From a virus (lineage: Duplodnaviria > Heunggongvirae > Uroviricota > Caudoviricetes): a stretch of DNA of 62,580 bases. The notes under the pieces were generated by a model. It had not been told where the DNA came from. It searched no databases and saw only the letters and a list, made by a program, of their open reading frames with translations. Position numbers and translations under genes: made by a program. The first letter of the stretch is position 1. Each line of letters opens with the position of its first letter. This document shows, piece after piece, positions 7,750-62,580 of the stretch. The DNA lies in IMG/VR virus record IMGVR_UViG_3300017963_002532, positions 64,001 to 126,580 of that record. One strand, written 5' to 3'.

Positions 7750-7759
7750 ACTTCCCCCA

Positions 7760-12054: not shown

Positions 12055-12055
12055 T

Positions 12056-13578: not shown

Positions 13579-13587
13579 TATCCCTCC

Positions 13588-15796: not shown

Positions 15797-15797
15797 C

Positions 15798-22332: not shown

Positions 22333-22336
22333 GTTC

Positions 22337-30721: not shown

Positions 30722-30725
30722 CCAC

Positions 30726-31856
30726 TTACTCCTTGAGTAGAGATTCAAGAATCTCTTTGAACATCGGTCCCACGTGCTCGTGGTCGAATCGGTCCAGCCC
30801 CGTCACCTTGCGCAGCTTACCCTCCTTGTGGTCTTCATAGGCAAGGCGCATCTGCTCGATCATAGAGTTCACAGACGGCTCCGCCCATTGCTCCTGGCTG
30901 GTGAAGAGATACGGAAGCGGGTGACGCATATCGTATACGGGCTCGATACTATGACGAACCTCGTAAATCTCGTCCCGCTTCAAGTATGCCTCGGGTCCAC
31001 CCCACAGAGGAGAGACGATGCCGTTGCCGAATGCCGCCGCCTCGAAGAGCGGGATTCCCCACCCCTCGCCGTTGCTTGCGTTGACGTAGACGTCCGCCGT
31101 CGCGTGAATACGATCGACCTGCTCCCGGCTGAGGATCTGTGAGATGACTACGAGCGGAGGACACTTGGGATACCTCATGCCATCGTTGACGTCATTCACA
31201 AAACTCATGATCTGCTCTTCCTCATTGGAGCGGGTCATCTGGTTAAAGTAACCCTTGAGGATAAGCAATACCTTTTCGCCGTCCTGGAACGCACCCGCGT
31301 ATGCACGCAGTAGCTTGTCGATCCCCTTCTTCTTCGAGATCTGCGAGACGTTGTAGAAGATGAGGGGCTTCTCGTCGTCGGTCAGCTTCTCACCGGCAAT
31401 ATCGTCAATGAGTTCGACCTCGCGGGAATACCTCTCCATCTCGAACGTATGTGGCACAACAAACACGGGCTTGTCGCAACCACCCTTCTTGATAGCCTCT
31501 GCGCTCATAGGGCAGAACGTAACCACCGCGTCCATACGGTTGAGAGACTCAGCCCATGCCTGGGGAATCTTGTCCGTCTCGGTAGCAATCATACCCACGT
31601 ACTTCGCCCGCTTGTCACCGTCCCGCACCGCCATCTCATTCGGAGTTAAGTGCTGGATGATGATATCAACATTGTCGGGCGAGCGCGTGAACAGCTTCCG
31701 CTCCCACGGCTCTAGCTGATGCTCGTGTCCGTCGTCGTACTTGACGTTACGAAGAACGAGGTCCACGCCAACCTTATTGAGCGCGGCAACGTAGTCCCGG
31801 GCTGCTGTAGAATAACCAGAGAAGCCCAGGTATGGACTAATGTATAGGACTTTCAC
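30726..31856 (-). CDS. GT4-family glycosyltransferase
   Basis: SGYSTAAR, ETDKIP, KKGIDKLLRAY, DVYVNASNGEGWGIPLFEAAAFG. Confidence 0.85.
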   Translation of the reverse strand: MKVLYISPYLGFSGYSTAARDYVAALNKVGVDLVLRNVKYDDGHEHQLEPWERKLFTRSPDNVDIIIQHLTPNEMAVRDGDKRAKYVGMIATETDKIPQAWAESLNRMDAVVTFCPMSAEAIKKGGCDKPVFVVPHTFEMERYSREVELIDDIAGEKLTDDEKPLIFYNVSQISKKKGIDKLLRAYAGAFQDGEKVLLILKGYFNQMTRSNEEEQIMSFVNDVNDGMRYPKCPPLVVISQILSREQVDRIHATADVYVNASNGEGWGIPLFEAAAFGNGIVSPLWGGPEAYLKRDEIYEVRHSIEPVYDMRHPLPYLFTSQEQWAEPSVNSMIEQMRLAYEDHKEGKLRKVTGLDRFDHEHVGPMFKEILESLLKE

Positions 31857-32047: not shown

Positions 32048-32055
32048 GTTAGCCC

Positions 32056-46841: not shown

Positions 46842-47435
46842 TTAGAAGTATTCCACACTGAAGTGGAAACCCCAACTGTTCTTGACACCGGTTGTCAACG
46901 GCTTAATGGAGACACCGATATGCCAATCGTGGATAGCAGCGGTTGTGGTGTGGTTAGCCACACTCATGGAGTTCGATCCGTCACTCGAAAGATCAGAGAA
47001 CGCACTATCTTGGTCAACCTCTGCAACCTGCGTGGTCATATTGTCCGGAGCCTCGCCGAGAGTCACACCAGACGCCGCAGTTAGAGCAACCGCGTAGAAC
47101 AGACCGTTCTGCGTCTGAACAGAACTACCAGCAGTCAACCGAACTACGAGGCTACCGCTACCAACAGCCACCGGTAGAGACGCGTTTCCGCCTCCGTCGA
47201 TCGATACCGTGTTAGCATCGATGTACTTGAAGTTGATACCAGTACCCTTGTCGGTACCAGCCGAATCAACCCGATACGTGGTGTCCTGGTAGGAGCCAAC
47301 AGACACGCTATTACCCGGTCCACCCGCACCGAAGAATCCTAAGAAGGATGGATCGGCGGTGTTACCGGCAATCAGCCCGCTGACCTCAGTAAAGCCTTCA
47401 GGGCAACCGCTAGGCAAATGGAATGTAATACTCAT
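46842..47435 (-). CDS. Putative virion structural protein
   Basis: G/S/T-rich beta-type composition, GGAGG RBS, within the structural block. Confidence 0.55.
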   Translation of the reverse strand: MSITFHLPSGCPEGFTEVSGLIAGNTADPSFLGFFGAGGPGNSVSVGSYQDTTYRVDSAGTDKGTGINFKYIDANTVSIDGGGNASLPVAVGSGSLVVRLTAGSSVQTQNGLFYAVALTAASGVTLGEAPDNMTTQVAEVDQDSAFSDLSSDGSNSMSVANHTTTAAIHDWHIGVSIKPLTTGVKNSWGFHFSVEYF

Positions 47436-47450
47436 GAATTACACCTCCTC

Positions 47451-49682
47451 TCATACATTCATAAAAACTTCTGGTGATGCACTAGATTGTAGAATCTGGT
47501 ACAAGCACTCTACAAGTTGAATCTCAAACGAGCCAGTATCTAGTTCCGCACGGCACAAGAACCGGCGTCCGTCATCAAGACCGACAACCAGCCAGTCACC
47601 CTCGGTGATACCTTCATCGTTAGAGCCGACAAACATCGTGTGACCGATGAAGTTGTTGATATCTGCTACGTCGAACGGGATGATATTTGAATCGCCCGTA
47701 ACCGTATACTGATTCAGCAACACAAGGTTGAAGTTGTGGGACGTGCCTAGGCGCAACTCCCAGAATGAGAACACGCCAGCCGCCACGTCAACCGCCCGGC
47801 GAGCGAACGACTTACTACCGATGCCGATCGGCTGAACGATCTCGGTGCCGCCCGCAGAACTCTCATAGAATGTTCCGCCGTCCGGGTCTCCAACGATCCT
47901 GAATGCCTCGAACTGATGGCTGTCAAGGCTTCTACCTCCCACGCCAAACCAGCCGTAGTTTCTACTCCAGGCAATACCATTAATGGCGTAGCTGCCGTGA
48001 TTGCCGATGTGGTTGAAACCCACCTGGCTCCGCTCAACTGCCCGCGTATTCAGGTTCACCTTCAGGAAGTGATACTCTGTCGTCTGACCTAGACCAGCCG
48101 TCGCGCCCGTGTCTGTTGACGGGTCCGGTGCTGGCGGTAGCTGCTGTGAACTATACGAGCGGAACGACCACTGGTTCTTAACGAATGCAAACGCAGTACT
48201 CGAACCCTCCTCTTGGATCATCTCACCAGCATTTCGCCAATACAGCGACGGGGTATCATATGACTGACGCCAAACGTAGGTGATGCCCGGGGGCGGCTGC
48301 GTCGTAAAGTATGCCGACGTCTGAGCCCCGGTGCCACCAAGGTTATCATTCCTCACCGGGCTGAGAAGTAATGCCGCGCCATTGAACGGCGAAATATTCA
48401 GAACACCGCTGCTGTTGCGACCACCAAATAGTTCATCACAGATGTGAATACCTTTAGATCTCTGTGGTGTTACTGAGTAGCCGTTATCAACCAGTGCGTA
48501 TGATTCCTGCGGCTCACCAGATGTACTATTGCGAACAATAGAATATGTGTCATCCTCGTTCATGGCGACAATGCCGCTCAACCAACCGGTTACGTGATAG
48601 TCGTCCTCGCTGTTCGGATAGACGCTGAGCACGCCGCTCGGTCCGTAGCCTGTGTTACTATCAGATACGATAATTCTGTGGACTCCGTGCAGTAATTCTG
48701 GACTTTGTGCAACAAAATTCATGAACGCCATACCCACCGTACGCGGGTGTCCTGACGCCGCTGGGATCTGGGTGTTACGGTCTGCCCAATCCCCGATCCA
48801 GCGTTCGCCCGCCGCCACAGCCGTCAAAGGATCGTTCTCTTCACTTATAATGCGTAGCTGAGTGGTCTCACTGAAGCCATCTCCACAGAGCCTCATAACG
48901 CCAGAAGCCAGGACCGCCGGGCTGAAACCGGACGACTGAGGGGCTCCCAGCTCCCCGTAGTTAAACGCGTTCATATCCCCTACGTCGGGACCCGCCGTGT
49001 AGGAATCGCCCCCAGGCGTAATTAGCGCCGGAAATACGGGGGCTGTCTCATAGGTTACATTGAATGCGAACCGCTCTCCACGCCTGGAGAAGCGGGCGTA
49101 CGGCTGGTAGCTGATTTCCCTGATCGTTTGGGTGTCCATATATCCCGATGCGCCGATAATTCCACTGGCGCTGACAGCGTTGTCTCCGAAGATCGACCCG
49201 AAATCGAGCACCTTCTCTGGGAGGCGGTATTGGTAGTCTCCACTTGCGCCGCTTGGTAGCGGACTGAAGGATGTCCTTAGATAGTCCGTTCTCGCTATGT
49301 GCTGGGTCGAGTCCGTGTCCCACGCTACCGAGGTGAAGATCTGGTCCATAGAGTTCCGCAGATCCTCGATATAGTTGAGGCAGTAGGGATTGCCACTCGC
49401 CGATACAAACGCACCGCTCGGGTCCGGGTCGGCTACCTCCTGCTTGGCAACCTCTGTTGGGATCGCCGAACGGTAGTTGTAGAAGGTCGGGTCGGACTCT
49501 ATTCCATATTTACGGATCTCGGCTAGGTGAACATACATAGCCTGCTCATATAGAAATCCACTGATCTCGGGGATTGGCTGAGCTTGATCTGACCAACCTA
49601 CGCTGGGATTGCCGAACCTACCGAGAAAAGTAAATGGGATATCTATATATTGGTACGGTAGAACACCGCTTGCTACACTCAT
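47451..49682 (-). CDS. Putative virion/tail protein
   Basis: 743 aa, beta-rich; about 15 SG dipeptides concentrated in the first ~430 residues. Confidence 0.55.
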   Translation of the reverse strand: MSVASGVLPYQYIDIPFTFLGRFGNPSVGWSDQAQPIPEISGFLYEQAMYVHLAEIRKYGIESDPTFYNYRSAIPTEVAKQEVADPDPSGAFVSASGNPYCLNYIEDLRNSMDQIFTSVAWDTDSTQHIARTDYLRTSFSPLPSGASGDYQYRLPEKVLDFGSIFGDNAVSASGIIGASGYMDTQTIREISYQPYARFSRRGERFAFNVTYETAPVFPALITPGGDSYTAGPDVGDMNAFNYGELGAPQSSGFSPAVLASGVMRLCGDGFSETTQLRIISEENDPLTAVAAGERWIGDWADRNTQIPAASGHPRTVGMAFMNFVAQSPELLHGVHRIIVSDSNTGYGPSGVLSVYPNSEDDYHVTGWLSGIVAMNEDDTYSIVRNSTSGEPQESYALVDNGYSVTPQRSKGIHICDELFGGRNSSGVLNISPFNGAALLLSPVRNDNLGGTGAQTSAYFTTQPPPGITYVWRQSYDTPSLYWRNAGEMIQEEGSSTAFAFVKNQWSFRSYSSQQLPPAPDPSTDTGATAGLGQTTEYHFLKVNLNTRAVERSQVGFNHIGNHGSYAINGIAWSRNYGWFGVGGRSLDSHQFEAFRIVGDPDGGTFYESSAGGTEIVQPIGIGSKSFARRAVDVAAGVFSFWELRLGTSHNFNLVLLNQYTVTGDSNIIPFDVADINNFIGHTMFVGSNDEGITEGDWLVVGLDDGRRFLCRAELDTGSFEIQLVECLYQILQSSASPEVFMNV

Positions 49683-50167
49683 GTGGCAAATCTTCCAAAT
49701 CCGTGAATCGGTAATTCGACGAATGAAACCGTAACCCTAGTTCCTGACATGCCGGACGGCACTGAGGCGGAATAATACATGCCACGCATACCCACTGTCG
49801 CCAGATGACGCCACGGGCGCGGGACTACGCTTGTGAATGTCGTACCGCTTGGGCTAACAACCCCCTCGTTGTTACACTCCTGTACGGTTACGAGCGCACC
49901 GGACGTTCCCTGATCTGAGACAGCCATAATCTCGACCGGTCGCACAATCGAGGTGGGGGTCGTAGACTGAATGAACATCGAACCGCTGGAGAGTTGAAAA
50001 TCTGCGCCGATCGTCTGAGTAAGCTGAGGGTTCTCTGTTAGAATAGTGACACGCTTACCGACGTCAACGACGTCTCCATCGTTGAGGGGAGGTACGTTGC
50101 TGATCTGTCGTCTTGCGCCGCTAGTCTTCGCTTCGTCAACTAGCTGGACCGTATATCGCTTAGCCAT
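49679..50167 (-). CDS. Putative virion protein
   Basis: 162 aa, six SG dipeptides, coupled to its neighbours. Confidence 0.5.
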   Translation of the reverse strand: MAKRYTVQLVDEAKTSGARRQISNVPPLNDGDVVDVGKRVTILTENPQLTQTIGADFQLSSGSMFIQSTTPTSIVRPVEIMAVSDQGTSGALVTVQECNNEGVVSPSGTTFTSVVPRPWRHLATVGMRGMYYSASVPSGMSGTRVTVSFVELPIHGFGRFAT

Positions 50168-52984
50168 TTATACCTCCTCCTCCGAGATAACCTCTACTAC
50201 ACGAGCATTGAGTGCATGACCCCCCGTGAAGTAATAGAATGTTACGGAGGTGCCAGTGCCCCTTCCTTCCTCCTGGTAGTTGAACACCGCCGGGTCGCCC
50301 TCATTCAAAAAGCCGTCGATACACTCAGTACCATCGGACATCAGGCGTCCATCATTGCGGCGGTTCTTGTTAGGATACGTCACGCCGTTATTCGTCTGAC
50401 CGAAATATCTCTCCGGCTCCACGGACGCGCCACCCAACTCTACATTGAGTAGGTTGTTCACCGTGGTGATCTCAACCTTCTTAGAAAATGATTCCGGCTC
50501 TGTGTAATACTGCGTCTGCGGCGGCGTGAGTCCAATACTCCTCACTGGTCCCACGTTGAAATCGAAGATGTCGAAGTCAATTGGGTTAATACCACCCTGG
50601 AATGCCGGGAACTCCCTATCGCCCAGCGGCGGGATCTTGGTATATGCCGCATAGAAGTCGTTGATACGGTATGTGGTGATAATCCCCCCGGTACCAAATG
50701 AGAACGACATCGAGGCGATACCATTGTCACGCACGCCATATAAGCCGCTACTATTCGCATCCTGGCTCGCAAAGCTGTCGAAGTCCAATGCCGGGAAGCC
50801 GGGCTGTCGAATCTCAGCATAGCGTGAGTTGAGGGCATCGATGAATAGACCACGTAGGCGACGCTTGGCGCGAATATCCATGATACGCACGCCATTCTGG
50901 TTACCAGCCGGATAGAAGTTCCACGGAGCAAATTGTTCGTCAGACACGAACTGCTCACCCAGCACCGGGTGTAGCGTGCCAGACACCCACACGTCCGGGA
51001 ATCCATCTCCATAGCGATCATTTGTTTCAGTCGGAATAGCAACACCGCTGATCTCGGAGTATACGTTGACTAAGATGTTCGGACTATAGAGATCAAACTC
51101 GCCCGATGTATTCGCGTTGTTGATACTTTCAATCATGGTCGCTAGTGTATCTAGAACCGTTCCACTGCCCTTACTCTGTCCAACAATAGCAGGGAACTGG
51201 CACCATACTGTGCCATCCGGGAACAACTGAAATCCATATTCGTCGGAAGAATCACGAGGATCTCGAATTTGCTGCCCAACCTCACGAAGCTGCACGGGCA
51301 CATAGTGTTCCCTGGTTCCAGAAGTACTGAACGGCGGCACATCCTCGCTCCAGTTGCCGAATGACGCAGGGACATCCTCACCCTCTGGACCATAGATTGT
51401 GCTTGACGGCAATACGCAGTGCGCCGCCACGCGGAAGTCCTGCTGGATAAAGGGACTCACAGGACCCAAGGTCTTGTTGATCTCATACCCCTGGATAAAC
51501 GGACCATTCGAGCCACTCTGACTTAAGGCGTGTCCTTCGACTTGGTTTTCGACATTCGCCCAGGCTGCGCCAACTACCCGTAAATAACCAGATGCCTGAT
51601 TATATAGAAGCCCAGACGCAACATACGAACGACCAAAGTGACGCTGTGCGTGATCATTCACACGATTATGGAAGTTGATTACCCAGTTATCCGTCGCATC
51701 TCGGCGGTTGTTGATAACGCGCAAGTTGCCAGACGGATTAGCTAGTAGCTCTGACAGAGGCTCGGTCGGATCTAGACGACTCTGGAACTCCGGATGCTGC
51801 GCCGCGATCGAACCCGCATCCCCGTCCATCTCGAACCCCGGCGGAGTCGCGCCCGAAGCCGCTGTCTGATAGATCTTGAAGTACGTCCACTGCTCAATTC
51901 CCGCCAACGCCATCTGTAGCTCTCGGTCACTTGGGATGTAGGAACGTAGCTGACCGGCAGCATCAACGAACTGCACAGTAATACCATGCCATGCCGGAGT
52001 AAAGACAATGCCGCTCGACGGCAGGTCTACGCCATCGATGGGGCTGAGTAGTCGTGAGTTCCAGAATCCCTGTGTCCGCGCACCAAGAAGGCGTACACGG
52101 GAGGGTTCTTGCACTGCGTCCTTACCAAAACGTAGCGTAGTATAGTTGCTATCGCCCAAGGAGTCGAACAAAGCATTCTCATCGATCTTGAACGGCACCT
52201 TGCGGTTGACGACGTTGACCTCATCCTGCGACATATTCCAGTACCAGTCATACGCCGAATCCTGCATCACCTGATTCACAACGGAATCAAGCGTGTCGAA
52301 GTCAAACTGGAAACGGACCGCTGCCGCATCAGCACCACCCATGTTACCCGCAATGACTGCCGGGCTTGGTAGCTTCGATGGATCTATGTTGATTCTGTCA
52401 TTATCATAGGCATTTTGCAGAGCCGTATAGATCTCTGCGTAGGTAGCACCGCGCTCCAAGATCTTACGATACTCCCAGGTAATAGGATCTCTTTCTTGGG
52501 TTACCTGGAAAGTATATAGGTCCCGGAGTTCCGCCGGAATGGAAACAATACCACTTGGTCTACTAGCGCCAAGGTCGTCTGTGGTGATCTTCACACGACG
52601 AAGCGTCCTGCGACGGTCCTCCATCGTAATCTCAACAGTGACGCCACCCTGACCAACGCTGTACTCGGAGTGAGTGACAAAGCCACGAAGGAAGAATGAA
52701 CCAATCGTCATAGACAATTCAGTATTGATATTCGGAGTCTGTCCAGATGCACCGTGTAGATCGGCACGCTCGCCCTGGGACACGAATGTCAGGTTGAACT
52801 GGTGAGGCGAATCGTTAAATCCAAAGGTGGACGAAAAGCCCTGTAGTACGGCATCTAGGTCTGATCCGGGCAGACCTTCGGTAACCTGTCCGCTCGGGAA
52901 ATAGATCGCCGAGTTGACGCCAGATCCGCTTACTCCTACAACACCCATCATTGATTGACTCCTACTACCAAGCTGTCGCACCAA
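50168..52984 (-). CDS. Putative tail/baseplate hub-like protein
   Basis: 938 aa; N-terminal region (FLRGFVTH..VTVEITMEDRR..YDWYW) recalls tail hub proteins; context only. Confidence 0.45.
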   Translation of the reverse strand: MVRQLGSRSQSMMGVVGVSGSGVNSAIYFPSGQVTEGLPGSDLDAVLQGFSSTFGFNDSPHQFNLTFVSQGERADLHGASGQTPNINTELSMTIGSFFLRGFVTHSEYSVGQGGVTVEITMEDRRRTLRRVKITTDDLGASRPSGIVSIPAELRDLYTFQVTQERDPITWEYRKILERGATYAEIYTALQNAYDNDRINIDPSKLPSPAVIAGNMGGADAAAVRFQFDFDTLDSVVNQVMQDSAYDWYWNMSQDEVNVVNRKVPFKIDENALFDSLGDSNYTTLRFGKDAVQEPSRVRLLGARTQGFWNSRLLSPIDGVDLPSSGIVFTPAWHGITVQFVDAAGQLRSYIPSDRELQMALAGIEQWTYFKIYQTAASGATPPGFEMDGDAGSIAAQHPEFQSRLDPTEPLSELLANPSGNLRVINNRRDATDNWVINFHNRVNDHAQRHFGRSYVASGLLYNQASGYLRVVGAAWANVENQVEGHALSQSGSNGPFIQGYEINKTLGPVSPFIQQDFRVAAHCVLPSSTIYGPEGEDVPASFGNWSEDVPPFSTSGTREHYVPVQLREVGQQIRDPRDSSDEYGFQLFPDGTVWCQFPAIVGQSKGSGTVLDTLATMIESINNANTSGEFDLYSPNILVNVYSEISGVAIPTETNDRYGDGFPDVWVSGTLHPVLGEQFVSDEQFAPWNFYPAGNQNGVRIMDIRAKRRLRGLFIDALNSRYAEIRQPGFPALDFDSFASQDANSSGLYGVRDNGIASMSFSFGTGGIITTYRINDFYAAYTKIPPLGDREFPAFQGGINPIDFDIFDFNVGPVRSIGLTPPQTQYYTEPESFSKKVEITTVNNLLNVELGGASVEPERYFGQTNNGVTYPNKNRRNDGRLMSDGTECIDGFLNEGDPAVFNYQEEGRGTGTSVTFYYFTGGHALNARVVEVISEEEV

Positions 52985-55900
52985 AACCGACCGTTGTCAT
53001 CTCTGACGATCCAGACCGGGATATAGTTTCCGACCGAATGGTAGAGGTGTGTCGGATCATCATAGTGCGAGAGTGTACGATCACCGAAGTTGATGATCGA
53101 TTCCTTTACTCCCACCGGCTGCACACCATACGCCTGCGTGAAGGCGATCGTGTGTGGTACTACACCACTCTGTGGCGTGCCGGTTAGTTCCAGCGTTATC
53201 TTCTCGTCTGCGGCTAGACCAACCGATAGGTCAACGCGCTTGCGGCAGCTACCGTGCGTGCCCTGCTTATCAATGGCGTCAGCACGAATGATGTATACAC
53301 CAGACGATGTGAACGTGTGCTCGACCTCAAACACGCCGTCGCTCGGCGTCACGTCCTGCTGACCACTCATGTTACCAAACTGGATCCAGACACTCTCGAT
53401 CTCGTTTGCCGCACCATTCTGGATGGTCTCATCGCCCACGGTCACAGTACCAGATACCGTGACGTGATAGTAACCGTCGAGAGTGCCGGAGCCAGTAACA
53501 TAGCAGGTCACTGTCGGCGGTGTATACTGCCTCAAGACCTGAAGTGTCGCATCGAAGTCATTCGACATCGCGCTACCGATCCTGGCGATTAGATCAAAGT
53601 CGATATCTTCCGGCACAACATATGTGAACATCGAGAGGAAGGATGCGTCGTCATCCACGCTAACCGCGTTTAGATAGCCTCCGACCTGACCCGAGCCAGT
53701 CTCCTGGGTATATGTGACGTATCCGCCAATCTGACCCGACGCTGATTCTAGATCGTATGTTGTGTATCCGCCAATCTGACCCGACGACCCTGTCGGCGAA
53801 TCTAGCTGCTCTAGGTAGCCACCAACCTCGCCCGATGCCGATAGCTGGACGCCGTCCGTGTAGCCACCGACCTGACCAGACACGCCCGTCGCCGAGTCCG
53901 GCGCTGCCATGTAGCCGCCAATCTGACCCGACGCACCCGTGGCAATCACTATCGGCAAGCCGATCTTCACGACGGATAGAATCTCTCCAGACGACAGAGC
54001 CCGCTGGATGAAGTAAACTTCGTCTAAATCGCCGTCGTATGGCTGTTGGTTCGTCGGAGATGCGCCGACATGGAACGGTTCGGTTGTTGTGTCCTGTGCC
54101 TTGGACGAATCCGGCAGAGCACCACTACCAATAATAGTCGGGATGTAGTCGGAGCCCGTGCGGTAGATATACTGGACCTCGTTATCGCGGTCAACCACCC
54201 AATCGATATGCTGCCACTCGTTAGCGATCAGGCTGCTCGGCTGTGTCGAAACAACGTAGCCGATGCCGTCGATACTTACCTGACCCCAGACCTCGCCTTC
54301 TTCGTCCATATATAGGACATACTGATCATAAGAACCCTTGCCCGCAAGCTGCGCATAGCGTTCATACGCCACGCCGCTGGGCTTCGCCCACAGACCCATT
54401 GTCCAAGATGACGCCGTTGGGCTAAGCCCGGTGGACACGCCACTACCAGTACGTTGTAGTGACGGGAAGGGGTTAACCCAATGCTCAAATCTTGTGCCAT
54501 TGTTTCTACGAGCTGCAACCTGTTTCGGTGATCCTGTAATCACATTGAGGTGATTGCTCTTGCCGCTACTGTCTAGGCGCGTATCGTTGTCGCCTAACTC
54601 ATCAAGCCTCCAGACCCCCTGCATCTGCTCTTCTGTAGCAGTTACGCTGGTCACGAATGCATCGAGATAGCCACCAATGGATTCACCAGCAGAAGGTACG
54701 GGACCGACTCCGGACTCGGCTACATATGCAACCTCTCCGCTTGACAATGCGCGGCTGATGAACATGATGTCGTTGGCAGCGCCCGTGAAGTCTGTGTTCG
54801 CCGGGTTGGGATTACCCTGGAGGGCTAGCTCATCCGCAGAACCAGAACCCATAACGCCCGTGATCGCGCCGGAGCCAACAATGCCGCCATTGACGTAGAG
54901 AATAACCTCTCCGCCAGTCTTATTGTATGTAGCTGCAATATGAACAAATTGACCGCTTGGAACCGCGCCGTGCGCCGTAGTGACGTAATCGATTTCCGCA
55001 GAGCCCGCACCCCACCTGTGTGCCACCTGTAGCCTATCGACCGGCTTGCCAGCCGAACCAACAACCTGTATTGCGAAACGCGCACTGTTATTGAATGTCT
55101 GATCGTCCCGCATGATTAGGACAACCGGCTGCGTCTCCTGTAGGTGACCGCCGCTCGGATATATCCAACCCTGCCAGGTAAAGTTCTCCGCCGACCCCGT
55201 GTACTGCTCCCCAATATCGACACCACGGAACTTCGCATTTGTGCCAGTACCAGCGTTCTTCGTTACACGCGCATTCTCTCTCTGGATATTAGCTGTCTGA
55301 ACACCGCTTGTAAGAATACCCTGGTTGACAGGAGTAAGGGCAACAAGGTCGTTACCCAGGTCTCCGTAATCAACAAGAGCGTCGCCCGGAGAGTCCTCGT
55401 TGCCATACCACCAACTCTGGATGGCTGGATCAATCTTAGTGAAGACCTCTGGTGTCGCACCAGGATATACTTGTAGATAGCCACCAATCTGTCCAGATGA
55501 TTCTGGACTAAAGGCTGGAACATAGCCACCGATCTCACCAGACGTTGGTGTCGGTGCGGCACCAGCCTCAATATAGCCACCAATCTCACCAGACGTAGAA
55601 ACAGCCACGCCGTTAACGTAGCCGCCAATCTCGCCGGTAGTCACCTGAAGACCGGAGTATGTCGCATAGATGTTAAAGTTATCTACCTGAACAACTACAT
55701 TAGTACCATCACCATCAAAGTTCAGCGCACCACTTGGCGTTTGGTCATTAAGCGAATTGTCATACAGGCTATGAGTTTCCTCCCAAATGCCCGAGTTCTT
55801 CGCTTTAACATGGCACTGAATCAAATCACCGTCATCAACTACACGTAGACGAGCAGAGGTGATAGTATAGTCGTCAGTCAGGTAGGCAAGAGCCTGAACG

Positions 55901-57030
55901 TTACCGCCGTTCAACAACTCCTGAAGAACAAAACGATCCTGACCCGAGAGGCGTCGCCAGTATCCGAAACGCCATGTAGTGAGGTTGTTCGCCATTCCAC
56001 TCTTAGGACGGAATAGAATGTCGGCTTTGCACTGGCTAGTCGCAGCCTGATCGGGCGCGACGTCTAACTCATATCGTAAAGAACTAGCATTGGTGGGAAC
56101 GCCCGAGTTAAGTACGGCGATGATCGCCTTACCCGGGAACGCCACGGCATCGGCACGACGCCACATCACTAGACCGCTACCAGGGTCGCTTTTGATGTAT
56201 GCGTCATTAGCTGCGGTAGGCTTACCGTTGCTGGTCAGGGTCCACCAGTCGTCTGGCTGGCTGTCAGTTAGTAAGTTGCCGTCTGTGTAGTTCTCAAAGT
56301 CGATATCGAGGATACATCGTTCCTCGAAGTTGTGGACGTAGGCACCAATCTGACCCGAGGTCGCGGTTGCATTATTCACGCCGTATATGGTGACATCGCC
56401 AATACCGTGAATAAGACCCGCTTCGTCAGTACGCAACTGGAATGCGCCGCTAGTTGGGAGGTAGTTATACGTCGTAGTCGCTTCTTGATGGATAAACTCC
56501 CAGGTACCAGAGGCGTTAGCCCATATAGTGATATTACTATCATCATCCTCTACTAATAGGCGTAGACTTTCTACCCTATCAATATTGAATGAGTCTAGGT
56601 TAGTAATCGCACCGTTGTCTAGACGGTCGAATGTTAGTGTGTCTGCTGCGCCAGTGTTGTGTTCCCACTCAACACGATAACCATATAGTGTATCATTCGT
56701 CGCTCCGCTCGGTCGAATGAGCATAATGGAGCGACCTTCTAGCTGGTTCATGATCATACCAGCTTCAATCGACACCTTATCATACGCAGAACGATCTACG
56801 CCACTGCCGTCTAGAACCATGACGGCGCGGCGGTCGTCAGACACAGTGCCAGGATTGTTCCGCATAGCGATCTGACCGCTAGGCGCACCAACCTCTGTAA
56901 TGATTACGGAATCAAAGCCAACTGGGCGCACACCATCCTCGTTCTGGACCCTCCATCCATTCTGACCATGTAGATCACCAGTGGAGAAATCCTCCCAATC
57001 AATGAGGGCGAGGATGCCAGATGTAGCCAT
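52948..57030 (-). CDS. Large virion surface/tail-fibre-like protein with concanavalin A/LamG domains, SG[QE][IV]GGY repeats and C-terminal PKD-like domains
   Basis: LamG hallmarks FTWQGWIYP, HIAATY..LYVNG, WTMGLWAKP, GDLDEV; PKD-like end INFGD..THLY. Confidence 0.7.
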   Translation of the reverse strand: MATSGILALIDWEDFSTGDLHGQNGWRVQNEDGVRPVGFDSVIITEVGAPSGQIAMRNNPGTVSDDRRAVMVLDGSGVDRSAYDKVSIEAGMIMNQLEGRSIMLIRPSGATNDTLYGYRVEWEHNTGAADTLTFDRLDNGAITNLDSFNIDRVESLRLLVEDDDSNITIWANASGTWEFIHQEATTTYNYLPTSGAFQLRTDEAGLIHGIGDVTIYGVNNATATSGQIGAYVHNFEERCILDIDFENYTDGNLLTDSQPDDWWTLTSNGKPTAANDAYIKSDPGSGLVMWRRADAVAFPGKAIIAVLNSGVPTNASSLRYELDVAPDQAATSQCKADILFRPKSGMANNLTTWRFGYWRRLSGQDRFVLQELLNGGNVQALAYLTDDYTITSARLRVVDDGDLIQCHVKAKNSGIWEETHSLYDNSLNDQTPSGALNFDGDGTNVVVQVDNFNIYATYSGLQVTTGEIGGYVNGVAVSTSGEIGGYIEAGAAPTPTSGEIGGYVPAFSPESSGQIGGYLQVYPGATPEVFTKIDPAIQSWWYGNEDSPGDALVDYGDLGNDLVALTPVNQGILTSGVQTANIQRENARVTKNAGTGTNAKFRGVDIGEQYTGSAENFTWQGWIYPSGGHLQETQPVVLIMRDDQTFNNSARFAIQVVGSAGKPVDRLQVAHRWGAGSAEIDYVTTAHGAVPSGQFVHIAATYNKTGGEVILYVNGGIVGSGAITGVMGSGSADELALQGNPNPANTDFTGAANDIMFISRALSSGEVAYVAESGVGPVPSAGESIGGYLDAFVTSVTATEEQMQGVWRLDELGDNDTRLDSSGKSNHLNVITGSPKQVAARRNNGTRFEHWVNPFPSLQRTGSGVSTGLSPTASSWTMGLWAKPSGVAYERYAQLAGKGSYDQYVLYMDEEGEVWGQVSIDGIGYVVSTQPSSLIANEWQHIDWVVDRDNEVQYIYRTGSDYIPTIIGSGALPDSSKAQDTTTEPFHVGASPTNQQPYDGDLDEVYFIQRALSSGEILSVVKIGLPIVIATGASGQIGGYMAAPDSATGVSGQVGGYTDGVQLSASGEVGGYLEQLDSPTGSSGQIGGYTTYDLESASGQIGGYVTYTQETGSGQVGGYLNAVSVDDDASFLSMFTYVVPEDIDFDLIARIGSAMSNDFDATLQVLRQYTPPTVTCYVTGSGTLDGYYHVTVSGTVTVGDETIQNGAANEIESVWIQFGNMSGQQDVTPSDGVFEVEHTFTSSGVYIIRADAIDKQGTHGSCRKRVDLSVGLAADEKITLELTGTPQSGVVPHTIAFTQAYGVQPVGVKESIINFGDRTLSHYDDPTHLYHSVGNYIPVWIVRDDNGRFWCDSLVVGVNQ
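53670..53945 (-). repeat. Six degenerate ~15-codon repeats encoding xSG[QE][IV]GGY
   Basis: Plus-strand near-copies such as tatccgccaatctgacccgacg and tagccgccaatctgacccgacg. Confidence 0.8.
55480..55645 (-). repeat. Four degenerate repeats encoding G[EQ]IGGY
   Basis: Plus-strand near-copies tagccaccaatct, tagccaccgatctcaccagacgt and tagccaccaatctcaccagacgt. Confidence 0.75.
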
Positions 57031-57470
57031 TACATCACCTTAGAATCGCCTAGAAACGGATCAATGCGCAACCTCTTAACCAAAGAGGCACCACGGCGGA
57101 CGTCGATATTGATGAAGTGACGACGCACCGCTTCCGGGATATCTTTAACAACTAGCCAGCGCGGCTTGTCGTTAAGATCATAGGTTTCAATAAGGAAGGC
57201 TGTCTGGTTGGGAACGATGACACCGCAAACGCGGCGATCAGGAAAGCACCTGTCTCCGATCTGCACGTCGCAGTATTCCTTGCCATCGTCTTCTTTGGTG
57301 TAGACTGCCAGCACCTTGACAGGATACGTAAGCACCTGGTTTGAGGCGGTACCGCCAATCTCAAAGGAGTGTCCTTCTTCCTTATCGAATGTGAACTCGA
57401 CTTGCTCACCACTATACGCCTGAAGCGTCGCGGTGATCGTATTTCCTTTTTCTTGCGTCTCAAACATTCA
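57030..57470 (-). CDS. Hypothetical protein
   Basis: ~145-aa ORF with GGAGAG RBS. Confidence 0.55.
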
Positions 57471-57488
57471 TCTCTCCATAAAATGAAT

Positions 57489-57517
57489 CCGGGGCTGAAG
57501 ATAAACCCCAGCCCCGG
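57489..57517 (-). terminator. GC-rich hairpin, possible terminator or RNA-processing stem
   Basis: CCGGGGCTG-11 nt-CAGCCCCGG perfect 9-bp stem; only a weak U-rich tail (ATTCATTTAT). Confidence 0.45.
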
Positions 57518-57548
57518 GCGTGTGGAGATTTCTCCCAGGACTAGGAGA

Positions 57549-57740
57549 TTAGGATGTGGCGTTTGTGAACGGGTTAGTGAGAGTCGCCTCCTGCTTGAAG
57601 CCAGATAGACGGCTGATCAGAGCACCACGTCCATAGGACGCACTAACCTTGCGATCAGTGTAACGAAGTACACGTAGACCCGTACGCATAAGTACTAGGT
57701 TAGCATCGTTGGTATCAGAGTTGTAGTTGATAGTTGCCAT
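57549..57740 (-). CDS. Small hypothetical protein (63 aa)
   Basis: Strong GGAGG RBS; followed by the hairpin. Confidence 0.55.
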   Translation of the reverse strand: MATINYNSDTNDANLVLMRTGLRVLRYTDRKVSASYGRGALISRLSGFKQEATLTNPFTNATS

Positions 57741-57765
57741 GTGTTAACACCTCCTCCGTGTTGGC

Positions 57766-58557
57766 TTAAGAGAGTTTGCGAATATGACGCCCCGGATGGC
57801 TACGTATGAAACCATCCATACCTCCTACTAGGTCGGAGGCGGGTGTTGCTTCTATTTGTATCTGTGCGTCTGAGATGTATTCATCCCAGACCTTTACGTC
57901 TGTGATACTGCCGATTAGGTTGCGGTCAATTACCTCGGTGGCAGTAGACTTACGACCACCAATAATCCACCAGTCCTCGACACCAGAGATTTTGAGCTGC
58001 GATAGATTATGAGACTCTTCATCTTTCAAAATTCCGTCAACCCATAGTTGGGCAACCCCATCTGATGTAGCATCGTCTGAGGATGGCTGGAATCGAATCA
58101 GGATATTGTGCCAAGCACCATCTCGGAATCCCGGCTGCGGATTATCATCACGCCATTCGAGTTCGAAGTTAACGTTGTCTGGACGTCGAAAAAAACAGCG
58201 CAGCCACACAAAGTTTTCTACAGCACCCTCTTCCCAGCCAAACGAGAAGTTGCCGCCACCACGAGTAACCATCTCTTTCTGTGGGTCTGGTGCCGGAGCG
58301 CCAGGAAACGTCTGTGTCGTATTCACCCATACGCTCACCGATAGATTGCCCGAGATCATCGTCTCAGACTTCTCAGGGAAGCGTACGATACTACCGCCCT
58401 CTAGCCCGTTGAAGTCCAGGTATGTGCTACGTGGTCCGCCGCCCTGCCACGTCGGAATACCAGACCCCTCCAGCACGCCGCTGTGCGTCGGATCGACGTC
58501 ATTGACAGTCTGGGTCCCAGCCATCTCACTGAATTTTGCATGTAATACAAGAGTCAT
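57766..58557 (-). CDS. LamG/concanavalin A-like domain protein
   Basis: YLDFNG, LSVSVWVN, DGAWHNILI, LWVDG, IGG, GSITDVKVWD. Confidence 0.75.
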   Translation of the reverse strand: MTLVLHAKFSEMAGTQTVNDVDPTHSGVLEGSGIPTWQGGGPRSTYLDFNGLEGGSIVRFPEKSETMISGNLSVSVWVNTTQTFPGAPAPDPQKEMVTRGGGNFSFGWEEGAVENFVWLRCFFRRPDNVNFELEWRDDNPQPGFRDGAWHNILIRFQPSSDDATSDGVAQLWVDGILKDEESHNLSQLKISGVEDWWIIGGRKSTATEVIDRNLIGSITDVKVWDEYISDAQIQIEATPASDLVGGMDGFIRSHPGRHIRKLS

Positions 58558-58559
58558 GG

Positions 58560-59138
58560 CTATGGTCCCGTATAATCGTAGGTCACTCTGTGCTCAAACC
58601 GACCAAACGAGCCAGCATCACCCGCGCCATACCGACCATTCGGAAAGGCTGCGCCGAGGATGAGGCTCACATACACGTACTGAGAGACGTCTGGGTCCAG
58701 GGTGCCACTCATGCTGGCATCGCCATTCTGTACAAAGAGATTCTGCGACCCTGGCAGAGATGTGGGGACTTCTATCATGCCAGCCTGACCGCTGGCAGCT
58801 TGGGCGGGGTATGCAGCCCAGACGCCTGAAGTGGCAAATTGCAAGTGGGATGAACCTGGAGAGAGGGCACTTTGGTCAGGAACATAGTACCTCATATTAT
58901 ATATACGATAATTTAGTGAAGAAGTCCTGAAAATAAAGACTTTTGTTTTGGCTCCGTAGTACCAATCCTCTTCGGTGAAGGTATCGAACTCCAGGTAGGC
59001 TGACTGCGTACCGCTCCCAAGTGTCTTCACATATGCTGCCGACCCACTAGCGATGTGGCGCGTCGGCGCAGGTGAAGTCTCGCTGATGTTAAATTCATAT
59101 AAATGAACAGTTGGAGCGTCAACCATCATGCCGTCCAT
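58560..59138 (-). CDS. Putative virion protein (paralog of 59721-60233)
   Basis: Shared TKV..MRYY/MRFY..VP.SLPGSQN.F..G.YG..YDY pattern. Confidence 0.6.
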   Translation of the reverse strand: MDGMMVDAPTVHLYEFNISETSPAPTRHIASGSAAYVKTLGSGTQSAYLEFDTFTEEDWYYGAKTKVFIFRTSSLNYRIYNMRYYVPDQSALSPGSSHLQFATSGVWAAYPAQAASGQAGMIEVPTSLPGSQNLFVQNGDASMSGTLDPDVSQYVYVSLILGAAFPNGRYGAGDAGSFGRFEHRVTYDYTGP

Positions 59139-59141
59139 TCG

Positions 59142-59717
59142 CTAGTTTGCGTCGATGTGTTCATACCAGCTAAGCGCCATATTAACCACGTTGTCGGCTG
59201 TTAGACTAGACAACCTAAGTAGGTATACTGTATTCTGCTTCAATACCCACTCCGAGTCCGCGCGAGCAGTGCCGCCGCCGGTGACTCGATTTGCGCCACC
59301 TCCAGTATCTACACCAAACTCAGTTTCAAATAGTAAGGTGCCGTCGTCTCCGTCATCCGCATGTTCTGTGATAATCAAACCCGGTCCATTGGCACTATTC
59401 CTATTGTTATTGTGAATTGGCATATGAATGCCAGACGTGTGAGTAGCTCCTTCAAAGAATTCGAACCTAGTATGTAGAGCCCCATACACGTTACCAAGCA
59501 GGTGAGCCCACCGCTCTGTATCCGGCGTATGAATAAGATACTCTAGCGGAGTCCCGATATCTAGGTCTCCACTAGTTGCAGAGAATGTAAAATGTCTACC
59601 GCTGTGAACCTCGTGGTGAGCGTAGTCCACAGTACGCAGCGCAGTTGTAGCACCATCGACCGCATTGGCAATATTAGGATCGACTCCCGCGCCCGGAAAA
59701 ACCTCTACCATGACCAC
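59142..59717 (-). CDS. Putative virion protein
   Basis: 191-aa beta-rich ORF; HHEVHSGRHF. Confidence 0.5.
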   Translation of the reverse strand: MVMVEVFPGAGVDPNIANAVDGATTALRTVDYAHHEVHSGRHFTFSATSGDLDIGTPLEYLIHTPDTERWAHLLGNVYGALHTRFEFFEGATHTSGIHMPIHNNNRNSANGPGLIITEHADDGDDGTLLFETEFGVDTGGGANRVTGGGTARADSEWVLKQNTVYLLRLSSLTADNVVNMALSWYEHIDAN

Positions 59718-59720
59718 TCC

Positions 59721-60233
59721 TTAATAGTAATCGTAGCGGAAACGATAGCGCAAAGTGCCAGCGCCCAAGCCGCCATAAGTGCCATCTGGCACGTCTGTCC
59801 CTGCAAAAATGGCAAGATACGCCCACTGCCCTAATCCGTCTACCTGACCAGAGCCGGTAATCTGCGCACCTCCCCCATGCCTGAAATAGTTCTGCGAACC
59901 GGGTAGCGAAATCGGGACATCGTCTGCCCCAGTCGTCAACTGCTTATTCTGAGCCCACGTATTAGTCAATTCCATAAGGAACTGATACGTGCCCTGGCTA
60001 AAGGCAGTAGTCGCTACCGCATAGAAACGCATGTCTTCGATAACTGTGTTACCATTGAACTCGACGCCACTCATGGCGACGACCTTAGTATCACTCACCA
60101 AGCCCGAGACGCTGTTATCGATCTGCCCAAAGTCTAGAGCCTGGGTTGTTGTATCTACGAACCCCGACCACGTGCCACTAGTCGCAGCAGCCACATCGAA
60201 CTGAACGATCTTGACTTCAGGCGGAAGTACCAT
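59721..60233 (-). CDS. Putative virion protein (paralog of 58560-59138)
   Basis: Same shared pattern as 58560-59138. Confidence 0.6.
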   Translation of the reverse strand: MVLPPEVKIVQFDVAAATSGTWSGFVDTTTQALDFGQIDNSVSGLVSDTKVVAMSGVEFNGNTVIEDMRFYAVATTAFSQGTYQFLMELTNTWAQNKQLTTGADDVPISLPGSQNYFRHGGGAQITGSGQVDGLGQWAYLAIFAGTDVPDGTYGGLGAGTLRYRFRYDYY

Positions 60234-61708
60234 TACAAGCCTCCCTGGTAACGCGGAAGAGAAATACTGCCGCTGGCAGAGTTCACGCCCGCCAAGTCTA
60301 GGATGAACGAATACTGAATCGACGCCGAGGCAACCCTACTCTTGATATCGTAGTTCAGAGAGGGCTGTCCCACTAGGTCTAGGCGTATAAACTCAGAACT
60401 GTTTGGATCTGGCTTCACCGCGTTAAGGTCTGACTCTACCTGGGCGATGGCGCGGTTGACGTCCGCCGACTCATCCCCGGTGTTAGTTGCCCTGGCGCGA
60501 GCACTCACGCTGATGCTACCGTCTAGCGTTGTTCCCATCTCTTGTACGATGGAGCCAAGCTGTCTGAACGGAATTGTAAAGCGAGCCAATAGCTCGGTCG
60601 GATCTCGACGATCATAGGTCACAGACCTTTCGGCGATACCTGACGGCAGGTCGTCTGCCGGATCGTCGGTATATGTAACGTCATAGTCTACCGTGCCAAG
60701 AAACTCGGACTCTGCCACAGACTGCGCGATCCTCTTGTTATTCAGCGACAGCGAATAGCCCAACCCTGTATAGAATGCCGCAGCATCAACATATAGGTTC
60801 GGCTTCACATGGTTCAGCCAGCCAGAGGTGGCATTGTCGAAGCCAACGTTGCCGCTCGGCGCAACGTCTGTTCTACCTAGACCCTGGATCTTACCCTGAA
60901 GCTGGATAGAGGTAATGCCTGCCCGGTCGGTACTCACCGAGATAGAGCGCGAATGATTCCAAGGATAGATGCCCGACGTAACAATGAACGCCTCTGTGGC
61001 ATCATACGAACCACGGGTTAGGCTGACGGACTCTGTGCGCTGAGTAGAGATCTCATACAGGGGCGCTTCGCTCTGATGCACGTGAACCGGGAAGTTCGCC
61101 GGAGCCTTAGCCAGCCCCAGCAGGGTCCTGCCGTAATCCCGGGCATTCTCATGCGCGTTGTTGGTCTCGCCACTCTGAGCCGTGTTCTTGCCCACGATAG
61201 AAATCGAGTGTTCGATCCTGACCCTTTGGGACTCATCAACCTCATTGTAGGACCACGTGTTATCTTCGCTTTCAATTAAGCCGCTAGCGCCAATGTCGTC
61301 TTCGTCGTATTCAAGGACAACGGTGTAGATGAACTTATCATACTGGAGGTCTTCCGGCAACGAGATGCTACGCACCTTGGGATAGATGCCGCTGGCGATA
61401 TATTCACCAGGGGCAATCACCGTGTTAGATGGTCCCGCCCGTAAAGAGAAATGCTTCCCATCTGTTGCGAAGATGGACAGCAATTGCTCCTGCGCCGCGT
61501 AGACATCGTTGTAGGTTCCGCTCGGCGAGTTGATCCACGTGCCGTTCAGTGTGATTACACGGGTAGCAGCGATCTTCTCTTCGTTACCAGACTCTACGTA
61601 GTCGCGGTCCCAAGAGATAAGGGGTGTAGGCGGACCGATCCGGTCGTCGCCATACCAAATCTCGACCCAGGACTGTGAGTTCCCCGGGACGACTGACGAT
61701 AGGTGCAT
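60233..61708 (-). CDS. Putative tail protein downstream of the tape-measure-like gene
   Basis: 491 aa, beta-rich, ten SG dipeptides; position typical of distal tail genes. Confidence 0.5.
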   Translation of the reverse strand: MHLSSVVPGNSQSWVEIWYGDDRIGPPTPLISWDRDYVESGNEEKIAATRVITLNGTWINSPSGTYNDVYAAQEQLLSIFATDGKHFSLRAGPSNTVIAPGEYIASGIYPKVRSISLPEDLQYDKFIYTVVLEYDEDDIGASGLIESEDNTWSYNEVDESQRVRIEHSISIVGKNTAQSGETNNAHENARDYGRTLLGLAKAPANFPVHVHQSEAPLYEISTQRTESVSLTRGSYDATEAFIVTSGIYPWNHSRSISVSTDRAGITSIQLQGKIQGLGRTDVAPSGNVGFDNATSGWLNHVKPNLYVDAAAFYTGLGYSLSLNNKRIAQSVAESEFLGTVDYDVTYTDDPADDLPSGIAERSVTYDRRDPTELLARFTIPFRQLGSIVQEMGTTLDGSISVSARARATNTGDESADVNRAIAQVESDLNAVKPDPNSSEFIRLDLVGQPSLNYDIKSRVASASIQYSFILDLAGVNSASGSISLPRYQGGL

Positions 61709-61724
61709 TACAACCCCCTATTCT

Positions 61725-62580
61725 TTACTCGCCTGTTGCCGGAATACTTGGTAGCTGTGCTCTCAGGTTCGGCGGGAACGCGCCTGCCCCAATACCAGCC
61801 TCGACCATTGCCCGGATGATGACGCCCAGATTCTTGATGAATGTCGCAGAGTCCTTTACGTCCGGGTGGTTCTTTACTACGTCCGCCATAGCTGCCGGTA
61901 GTTCGGCGAGCCCCGTAATCTCTAGCTTCTCGATAGTTTCGCCTGCTAGCTTGATCAATACCTCTGTCGGCACCCTGCCACCGTTATTGGCTAGAGCCGC
62001 CTCGATGTTCTTGATCATAACGCCAAGCTCTTGTGAGTTGAATCCCTTTTCCCCGGTTAGAGGACGTAGAACCTCGATAAGATCCAGAAGCGCCTTCTCA
62101 ACCGGCACCTGTGTCGTGGAGCCAGCCGCCTTGCCCTTGGCAATGGCGAAGCCCGGCGTACCACTACCTACCTTGGCGAGATCCGCAGCCCTACCCTGCT
62201 CGAACAACTGGTTGAGAGATGTGACTGTCCTACCCATTTTAAGGAAGCCCTCGTTGAGTGCGGCAATCGATGTATCGTTTTCCTTAATAGCCTGATTGAA
62301 TCTCTCGTAGCGTTCCTGTAGAACGCCCATAGTCTCTGCCGTGCCCCTGCCAGACTCTAGGTTTTCTTGCGCTAGATCCAGGATGTTTGTCATAGCTGTC
62401 TGGAATGCCTGAATCCTAGCCATGCTCGCACGACCAAGGACAGCGTTAGTACCCATCGCCGGACCGGTCGGGCGGTTCTGCCTACGGATGAAATCCATCT
62501 CTGCCATGATACCTGCGCGGCGTGTGCCCTGCTCAGATGTTAGAGCAGCCAACTGCTGACGCGCAACCTCTACCTGGATA
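61725..62580 (-). CDS. C-terminal part of a long helical protein, probably tape measure (partial)
   Basis: Frame stays open beyond the track start to the window edge (IQVEVARQQLAALTSEQ); Ala/Leu-rich helical composition. Confidence 0.5.
   Translation of the reverse strand, partial: IQVEVARQQLAALTSEQGTRRAGIMAEMDFIRRQNRPTGPAMGTNAVLGRASMARIQAFQTAMTNILDLAQENLESGRGTAETMGVLQERYERFNQAIKENDTSIAALNEGFLKMGRTVTSLNQLFEQGRAADLAKVGSGTPGFAIAKGKAAGSTTQVPVEKALLDLIEVLRPLTGEKGFNSQELGVMIKNIEAALANNGGRVPTEVLIKLAGETIEKLEITGLAELPAAMADVVKNHPDVKDSATFIKNLGVIIRAMVEAGIGAGAFPPNLRAQLPSIPATGE

Follow-up and report, generated by a model that had tools for sequence, protein, structure and literature searches.

Why do the proteins at the tip of a phage tail carry serine directly before glycine far more often than their composition predicts, and does any enzyme read this dipeptide? 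The question is raised by IMGVR_UViG_3300017963_002532, a single linear IMG/VR viral contig of 126,580 bases that is estimated to be 75% complete and belongs to an uncultured phage with a genome of ~170 kb. We analysed its second half (positions 64001-126580; 62,580 nucleotides, here called the window, to which coordinates refer unless another genome is named), in which the minus strand carries all long open reading frames (ORFs), and within it the Ser-Gly (SG) rich interval 46842-61708. An earlier note on this DNA had proposed that SG motifs saturate the virion proteins and serve as an O-glycosylation sequon for a 27-kb island of sugar genes, giving a glycosylated, proteoglycan-like coat. Its hand counts are exact (40, 17, 15, 10, 6, 5 and 5 SG in the proteins of 1360, 938, 743, 491, 162, 170 and 192 amino acids (aa), next to 5 in the 1124 aa of DnaE and 5 in the 639 aa of NrdJ), and SG outnumbers GS about two to one in the 1360-aa protein, as the note had said (40 vs 18). 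Our data place the excess at the tail tip, and the explanation that we tentatively prefer, possible though a little short of probable, is O-glycosylation of serine at strand-loop-strand sites by conserved glycosyltransferases (GTs) of family GT4.

The Ser-Gly excess and its place in the virion

The interval holds eleven ORFs (197, 743, 162, 938, 1360, 145, 263, 192, 191, 170 and 491 aa), followed by a 5'-open ORF at the contig end. With expectations obtained for each protein from composition-preserving shuffles, these 12 proteins contain 112 SG where 45.8 are expected (observed/expected, O/E, 2.45; z = 10.9), so that the excess survives the very check which the earlier note had called for and a composition artefact is ruled out. 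Among the 400 dipeptides SG ranks first in the block, the second being PS with z = 3.5, and the reverse dipeptide GS is enriched in none of the block proteins. The 53 non-structural proteins of the window have 56 SG against 53.1 expected, the density being 0.37 per 100 aa in non-structural genes vs 2.18 in the block, and across the whole contig the excess is limited to this single block. Its members, by descending coordinate, are:

61725..62579, minus strand: 5'-open ORF at the contig end, probable tape-measure C-terminus by position only; SG 2 vs 1.0 expected, no excess
60233..61708, minus strand: 491-aa tail-tip protein in the Dit position, next to the tape measure; SG 10 vs 4.4 expected, z 2.9; 10 conserved SG columns in its family
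59721..60233, minus strand: 170-aa tail-tip protein; SG 5 vs 1.3 expected, z 3.6
59142..59717, minus strand: 191-aa protein, phrog_5335 (unknown function); SG 3 vs 1.0 expected
58560..59138, minus strand: 192-aa tail-tip protein; SG 5 vs 2.1 expected, z 2.3
57766..58557, minus strand: 263-aa LamG-domain protein; SG 4 vs 2.4 expected
57030..57467, minus strand: 145-aa protein; SG 1 vs 0.3 expected, no excess
52948..57030, minus strand: 1360-aa fibre/adhesin with two LamG domains, one PKD domain and two repeat arrays; SG 40 vs 13.2 expected, z 8.1
50168..52984, minus strand: 938-aa baseplate hub / Tal protein with an N-terminal gp27 / Mu gp44 / VgrG fold; SG 17 vs 7.6 expected, z 3.9
49679..50167, minus strand: 162-aa protein, in relatives part of the hub by fusion at its C-terminus; SG 6 vs 1.6 expected, z 3.9
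47451..49682, minus strand: 743-aa tail-tip protein; SG 15 vs 7.8 expected, z 2.95
46842..47435, minus strand: 197-aa protein that ends the block; SG 4 vs 3.3 expected; 5 conserved SG columns in its family

Few of these ORFs match Pfam or PHROG, the matches being LamG and PKD in the 1360-aa protein, LamG in the 263-aa protein and the one PHROG of unknown function. Neither megablast nor tblastn against ~50,700 GenBank phage records gave a nucleotide or protein match to the block and the 938-aa hub, a pattern search of viral contigs with the 491-aa protein returned no relative, and in the search for cultured relatives the terminase reached at most 24% identity, to terminases of Bacillus siphophages. 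The position of the block is given by synteny. In G004, a complete relative of 183,100 bp with terminal repeats, the homologue of the 491-aa protein lies directly 3' of a 1812-aa tape measure (PHROG, E 1e-40), and the 491-aa protein is 35-38% identical to the ORF immediately after the tape-measure gene in both G004 and G023. The interval is therefore a tail-tip, baseplate and fibre module, and the head genes of the phage are beyond the contig end. The tape-measure label of the 5'-open ORF comes from the same synteny with G004; this ORF gave no sequence match at 1e-5. An AlphaFold model of the 938-aa protein, with 30 homologues as input and a mean predicted local distance difference test (pLDDT) of 76, matches the gp27 / Mu gp44 / VgrG baseplate-hub fold over its N-terminal ~300 residues (Foldseek probability 1.0 to many solved baseplates).

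Part of the signal in the 1360-aa fibre lies in a 15-17-residue SG[QE][IV]GGY repeat, more fully [S/T]SG[QE][IV]GGY, which forms two arrays (residues 480-518 and 1034-1119) flanking the LamG domains and holding nine SG sites; two further sites belong to the LamG ending 'RALSSGE'. With the arrays masked the block still contains 103 SG vs 42.5 expected (z = 10.2), which rules out internal repeats as the sole cause. Tandem Repeats Finder detected no DNA repeats in the block, so that the fibre repeat must be maintained at the protein level, and since the SG serines of the block use all six Ser codons there is no DNA word behind the pattern. Together with the mixture of codon families in conserved columns described below, these results lead us to reject DNA-level explanations.

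The statement that SG saturates the virion proteins was thus too broad: it holds for the tail-tip block after the tape measure, to which the excess is confined, and the notion of a glycosylated coat has to be given up, because the following proteins of the complete relative G004 show no excess:

terminase: SG 2 observed vs 2.4 expected
portal: SG 4 observed vs 5.0 expected
probable major head protein (weak PHROG hit): SG 0 observed vs 1.1 expected
tape measure: SG 8 observed vs 8.9 expected

The excess in G004 starts at the ORF immediately after the tape measure, and likewise in G015, G023 and the fragmentary loci. A fair description of its location is the tail tip plus some accessory surface proteins, not the coat. 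SG-rich ORFs also occur outside the tail-tip block, in G004 (81714-82739 and 160771-163357), G015 (39761-42391) and G023 (131964-135218); examples include a 341-aa ORF flanked by the head genes and the tape measure, and two ORFs with weak similarity to head decoration. They may be further outer virion proteins.

The structural proteins of four unrelated control phages gave SG O/E values of 1.04 in T4 (20 proteins, all fibres and the baseplate among them), 1.20 in T5, 1.28 in Che8, a phage with a glycosylated virion, and 1.58 in lambda. GS was about 1.0 in all of them and no individual protein exceeded z = 2.4. In lambda (10542-18903) the tape measure H has 10 SG vs 5.0 expected, and the tip protein J has 12 vs 6.4. 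There is a weak generic tendency of tail proteins towards SG over GS; none of them approaches the level of this clade, and the idea that the excess is a generic property of phage tail proteins is largely rejected by these controls, the mild bias notwithstanding.

Conservation and context of the sites in the lineage

A total of 31 IMG/VR contigs, the longest of 183 kb, carry full-length homologues of the hub with 41-46% identity, and a second, more distant tier (~25-33% identity) is found on 13 further contigs. All near homologues have an SG excess in one direction (O/E 1.5-2.5), with GS flat. Pooled over the non-redundant structural-strand ORFs of all 44 related loci (~203,000 residues), SG occurs 3227 times against 1543.5 expected (O/E 2.09, z about 43; next dipeptide z about 10), whereas ORFs of the opposite strand give 1.03. 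GS stands at 1.05, and among the dipeptides ending in glycine only SG is raised, as DG is at 1.01, NG at 1.08 and TG depleted at 0.78. Ser, Asn, Asp and Thr are not interchangeable before Gly in these proteins, as they should be in generic beta-turns or G1 bulges, and a generic turn preference does not predict a signal that is specific to residue and direction. Avoidance of the labile turns Asn-Gly and Asp-Gly we consider a weak explanation, since neither dipeptide is depleted in the pooled set. The SG-rich tail-tip proteins are also unusual in their composition, with 2.2% Lys vs 6.2% in SG-poor proteins of the same loci and a strong depletion of Glu and Arg.

The sites are conserved beyond their surroundings. 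Nine of the 17 SG sites in the hub of the window are exactly S-G in at least 72% of the homologues (~43% identity), eight of them in at least 80%, and serines within SG are conserved at 0.54 vs 0.27 for other serines (p = 0.004). Conserved SG pairs score 0.80-0.82 in conservation and stand above their flanks, which are at the average of the family (0.49-0.61), and the conserved columns of five ortholog families comprise 30 SG, 4 GS, 3 DG, 4 NG and 2 TG. At 11 of 16 conserved SG columns the homologues mix the AGY and TCN families of Ser codons; an exchange between these requires two base changes, so that selection must act at the amino-acid level.

Inside the hub family nature has provided an experiment, because some orthologous hubs show the excess and others lack it. 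Several distant phages have a hub without it (4-7 SG vs 5-7 expected) next to proteins that reach z = 4-9. Distant hub orthologues (~30% identity) have DN, NN, DG, TD or DT where the near clade has invariant SG, which argues that the fold has no need for Ser-Gly at these positions, which are of a polar, turn-forming kind. Within the block the excess spans unrelated folds, namely the gp27-like hub, the LamG/PKD fibre and several unrelated small proteins.

The pooled sites share the motif [V/I/P]-A-[P/A]-S-G-[V/I/L/T]-[Y/F/I/L]. In the block the residue before SG is A, T, P, S or G at 73% of sites vs 39% in the background, in agreement with the preference for a small residue that had been reported before. 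The analogy to proteoglycans drawn on the same occasion fails, because SG sites have fewer acidic neighbours than expected instead of more. In the pooled set K, R, D and E are all under-represented between -3 and +2 (D 0.18x at -1), and in the window D precedes SG 0 times vs 7.3 expected.

A pattern that is specific to residue, direction, module and lineage, independent of the fold and conserved at the protein level points to a trans-acting, lineage-specific reader of Ser-Gly. On the other hand, SG may be a lineage-specific structural habit that closes a tight turn or beta-bulge before a strand, with nothing attached and the neighbouring GTs serving another purpose, a possibility of real weight that we would nevertheless not call probable. 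The position of the sites would suit such a habit. Two of the 17 hub sites are in the disordered N-terminus of the model; the other 15 divide into twelve in coil and three at strand edges. Three sites lie no more than two residues ahead of a strand (S144-G145, strand from 146; S324, from 327; S646-G647, from 648), and S646-G647 looks in the model like a classic G1 bulge. The two positions after the conserved SG glycine are 54-60% hydrophobic and 2-11% charged. The excess sits in old, positionally fixed columns and not in young ones, the N-terminal hub sites S19 and S31 are kept even in homologues of 30% identity, the SG-over-GS bias of lambda, Che8 and T5 is generic if weak, and the odd composition of the SG-rich proteins, poor in Lys, could belong to the same habit. 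A structural habit would, however, have had to emerge side by side in a number of unrelated folds within one module, and in this lineage only. It leaves unexplained why the generic turn formers are not enriched before Gly and TG is depleted, why orthologues with DN, NN, DG or TD in place of SG keep the fold, and why the beta-rich fibres and baseplate of T4 show no excess.

The glycan island and its conserved glycosyltransferases

The 27-kb island that the earlier note had named as the partner of SG is real. It comprises ~12 GTs (GT2, GT1/GT4 and one GT32-like), SDR epimerases/dehydratases, a UDP-GlcNAc 2-epimerase, RmlC- and RmlD-like enzymes, a DegT aminotransferase, a nucleotidyltransferase, a sulfotransferase, a methyltransferase and HAD phosphatases; in Pfam scans of the island ORFs at 2885-34978 the only GT families were GT2, GT1/GT4 and GT32-like (Gly_transf_sug), with no GT14-type xylosyltransferase. 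Compared with three complete relatives (G004, G015 and G023), its conserved part amounts to only three GT genes at the replication-proximal end, which directly adjoin SSB and DnaE and whose order, DnaE ... GT621-GT376-GT364, is kept in G004 and G023; the list gives them first and then the variable part:

32056..33921, minus strand: 621-aa conserved GT4 carrying a four-Cys ribbon insertion and DUF4214 at its C-terminus, a candidate enzyme for SG
30726..31856, minus strand: 376-aa conserved GT4 glycosyltransferase
28654..29748, minus strand: 364-aa conserved GT2-like glycosyltransferase
6631..28392, minus strand: variable island cargo (nucleoside diphosphate sugar enzymes, sulfotransferase, methyltransferase, ~8 GTs)

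Only three genes between 6631 and 28392 have a match, each in a single relative: an epimerase (23% identity, G015), the nucleotidyltransferase (25%, G004) and the DegT aminotransferase (36%, G023). The sulfotransferase, methyltransferase and GT2 genes of this stretch have no counterpart in the three complete relatives, even in the near one, and the sulfated and methylated deoxysugar glycan that had been proposed at the SG sites is therefore unsupported. Since most of the stretch is lineage-specific, the island as a whole is not the partner of the clade-wide SG trait. Judged by this comparison the island is a mosaic whose hypervariability resembles that of O-antigen loci, and because it retains just three conserved GTs, any SG-reading enzyme of the island should be one of these. 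They are the only conserved lineage-specific enzymes near the module, and their genes are conserved and syntenic wherever the SG trait was found. GT2-family genes are present in nine of nine relatives that are at least 90% complete, the three contigs without a match being 45-59% fragments.

The family of the 621-aa GT has 903 homologues, many of them on contigs of 160-183 kb. Several members of ~1000 aa (P0044, P0045, P0049, P0056, P0092 and P0112) contain Hom_end, LAGLIDADG_3 or intein-splicing Pfam domains; inteins are unusual for a GT and suggest that the gene is important to the phage. The DnaE homologue of the distant relative G015 (85719-92642), which at 2307 aa is about twice the usual length, probably has inteins too. 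The 621-aa protein is assigned to GT4 by Pfam PF00534 (Glycos_transf_1) and by the invariant E389/E397 (E-x7-E). Just before this motif, in the C-terminal Rossmann half, the invariant C318, C321, C350 and C353 (CxxC...CPxC) mark the inserted ribbon. Its model (pLDDT 85.8; predicted template-modelling score, pTM, 0.83) aligns with GT4 structures at template-modelling (TM) scores of 0.69-0.76, and the best solved structure among the 50 best Foldseek PDB matches listed is chlorovirus B736L (3oy2, TM 0.76, E 5e-16, 13% identity), followed by generic GT4 enzymes. B736L is also the single PDB sequence match of the 376-aa GT. A TibC-like iron finger, which the four-Cys insertion had brought to mind, receives no support from the fold search.

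The genes next to SSB and DnaE could have another target altogether: it is unlikely, but conceivable, that the conserved GTs add sugars to phage DNA or to a glycan of the host envelope and that the SG excess is unrelated to them. Their location would fit such a role, as would the four-Cys ribbon, a motif that is often nucleic-acid binding, and the presence of a deoxynucleoside monophosphate kinase and a ThyA-family enzyme in the genome. Phage GTs that hypermodify DNA are known (bioRxiv 10.1101/2023.12.21.572611). The precursor enzymes for DNA glycosylation were, however, not found: searches of the contig, which represents 75% of the genome, revealed no C5 methyltransferase, the sole gene of the thymidylate-synthase family scores as canonical ThyA (E 2.6e-128), and no route to a hydroxymethyl-pyrimidine acceptor is visible. 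A search for TET/JBP enzymes gave no match but was silent in every control genome too and carries no weight. With either target the SG pattern itself would be left unexplained.

Two further gene groups may be mentioned here. HNH endonuclease genes, one of them with an AP2 domain, lie at 44411-44830 and 19040-19573, between the RecA/UvsX-like and DnaB-like genes and inside the glycan island. In the half of the contig that the window leaves out, a dense RNA-repair set lies at 18-48 kb and consists of an RtcB ligase, two RNA ligases (one of the T4 Rnl1 / tail-fibre-attachment type) and an ATP-dependent DNA ligase.

A possible Ser-Gly glycosylation system

O-glycosylation by the conserved GTs could operate as follows. 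The SG serines would be acceptors for a covalent modification, most likely O-glycosylation, placed on them in the host cytoplasm by at least one of the three conserved GTs (621, 376 and 364 aa; 28654-33921). The enzyme would recognise a short uncharged loop, [V/I/P]-A-[P/A]-S-G, directly before a hydrophobic beta-strand. Loops of this kind occur in tail-tip proteins that face outward and whose folds are unrelated (hub, LamG fibre and small baseplate proteins). The rest of the island, which varies, would subsequently extend the primed serine into a lineage-specific glycan. Taken as a complete phage-encoded system of cytoplasmic Ser-Gly O-glycosylation, in which GT4 enzymes prime dozens of fixed beta-turn sites of the tail tip (hub, fibres and baseplate) and the variable cargo diversifies the glycan between close relatives in the manner of O-antigens, this proposal is one that we put forward with some reserve, as a possibility rather than a probability.

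One parallel is bacterial. Aah and TibC glycosylate serines of the adhesins AIDA-I and TibA densely in the cytoplasm, with ~19 sites per adhesin, at a strand-loop-strand element of a beta-rich surface protein (PMC3835316). The SG context likewise consists of small uncharged residues, Ser and Gly followed by a hydrophobic strand, with V/I at -3 and V/I/L then Y/F after the glycine, and the three hub sites just ahead of a strand might sit in an acceptor loop of this type. The two cases differ in that our candidate is a GT4 of the GT-B fold with four invariant cysteines, TibC, which has the BAHT fold with an iron finger, being absent from its 50 best structural matches listed, and in that Aah has no sequence consensus whereas Ser-Gly is strict here; moreover, the putative substrates are phage tail-tip proteins.

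Among phages, work on mycobacteriophages Che8, Corndog and Myrna (Freeman et al. 2023, as summarised in PMC12619734) describes phage GTs which glycosylate the phage's own virion proteins in the cytoplasm, at the C-termini of capsid and tail-tube subunits. Phage-encoded GTs are present in our genome as well; the candidate sites, in contrast, are internal, lying in dozens of turns of proteins of the tail tip, and the tail proteins of Che8 have no comparable SG excess (O/E 1.28). The chloroviruses PBCV-1 and NY-2A come to mind since B736L is the nearest solved structure to the 621-aa GT among those listed, although this likeness concerns a generic GT4 fold at 13% identity. Chloroviruses have their capsid glycosylated by virus-encoded cytoplasmic GTs, the glycans being N-linked at atypical sites of the major capsid protein. 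With the xylosyltransferases of animal proteoglycans the SG sites share the Ser-Gly dipeptide and the strict preference for Ser over Thr. The proteoglycan sequon requires acidic flanks; the flanks here are A/P and V/I/L/Y/F, and the Pfam scans detected no GT14-type enzyme in the island. Finally, type I beta-turns with a G1 bulge, or tight hairpins, resemble the sites in lying at a boundary from coil to strand with Gly before the hydrophobic strand. In turns of this type Gly usually follows Asn, Asp, Ser or Thr, whereas the enrichment here is restricted to Ser, with Thr depleted, and to one module of one phage lineage.

Several observations weigh against glycosylation of the SG serines by the conserved GTs. 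We infer the attachment of a sugar, the GT responsible and the nature of the glycan from a pattern that is statistical, evolutionary and syntenic. GT4 enzymes mostly use sugars, lipids or small molecules as acceptors, and neither TibC nor GtfA nor OGT is among the 50 best structural matches listed for the 621-aa GT, a family that has no match in cultured phages. Lineage-specific, 'young' columns contain 193 SG vs 212 GS, so that there is no sign of selection for additional sites. The hydrophobic flanks and the proximity to strand edges fit a structural turn equally well. Lambda J and H reach an SG O/E of about 2, with a bias of SG over GS, in a phage that has no GT island, and SG is absent from the probable major capsid protein of G004, which sets the case apart from the known one of the mycobacteriophages. 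A search for an island-free relative found none; the correlation between SG excess and GT island proposed in the earlier note is therefore confounded by phylogeny, and the co-occurrence of GTs and SG, though perfect, is fully confounded by shared ancestry. A reader other than a GT, be it another Ser modification (phosphorylation, acylation, ADP-ribosylation or similar) or a lineage-specific assembly chaperone docking on the uncharged [P/A]-S-G-hydrophobic element, is quite unlikely: the specificity and conservation of the pattern require a lineage-specific trans-acting reader of whatever kind, but no kinase, acyltransferase or ADP-ribosyltransferase was seen conserved beside the block, where the three GTs are, replication genes aside, the only conserved enzymes.

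Our literature searches found no publication on an SG-type acceptor motif on phage tail proteins, and if the O-glycosylation reading is true, the SG motif would be the first O-glycosylation sequon defined by its sequence in any bacterial virus. In practical terms it would supply a minimal bacterial O-sequon with a soluble enzyme for glycoengineering, and the SG excess marks outer virion proteins in genomes where homology searches give nothing. Even if its role is purely structural, a lineage- and residue-specific dipeptide 'code' across unrelated folds still calls for an explanation. If the serines are glycosylated, a self-made glycan at genetically encoded sites covers the end of the virion that recognises the host in a large, widespread group of uncultured phages; this would bear on host recognition, on resistance to proteases and grazers, and on the evasion of receptor-mimic or lectin-type defences.

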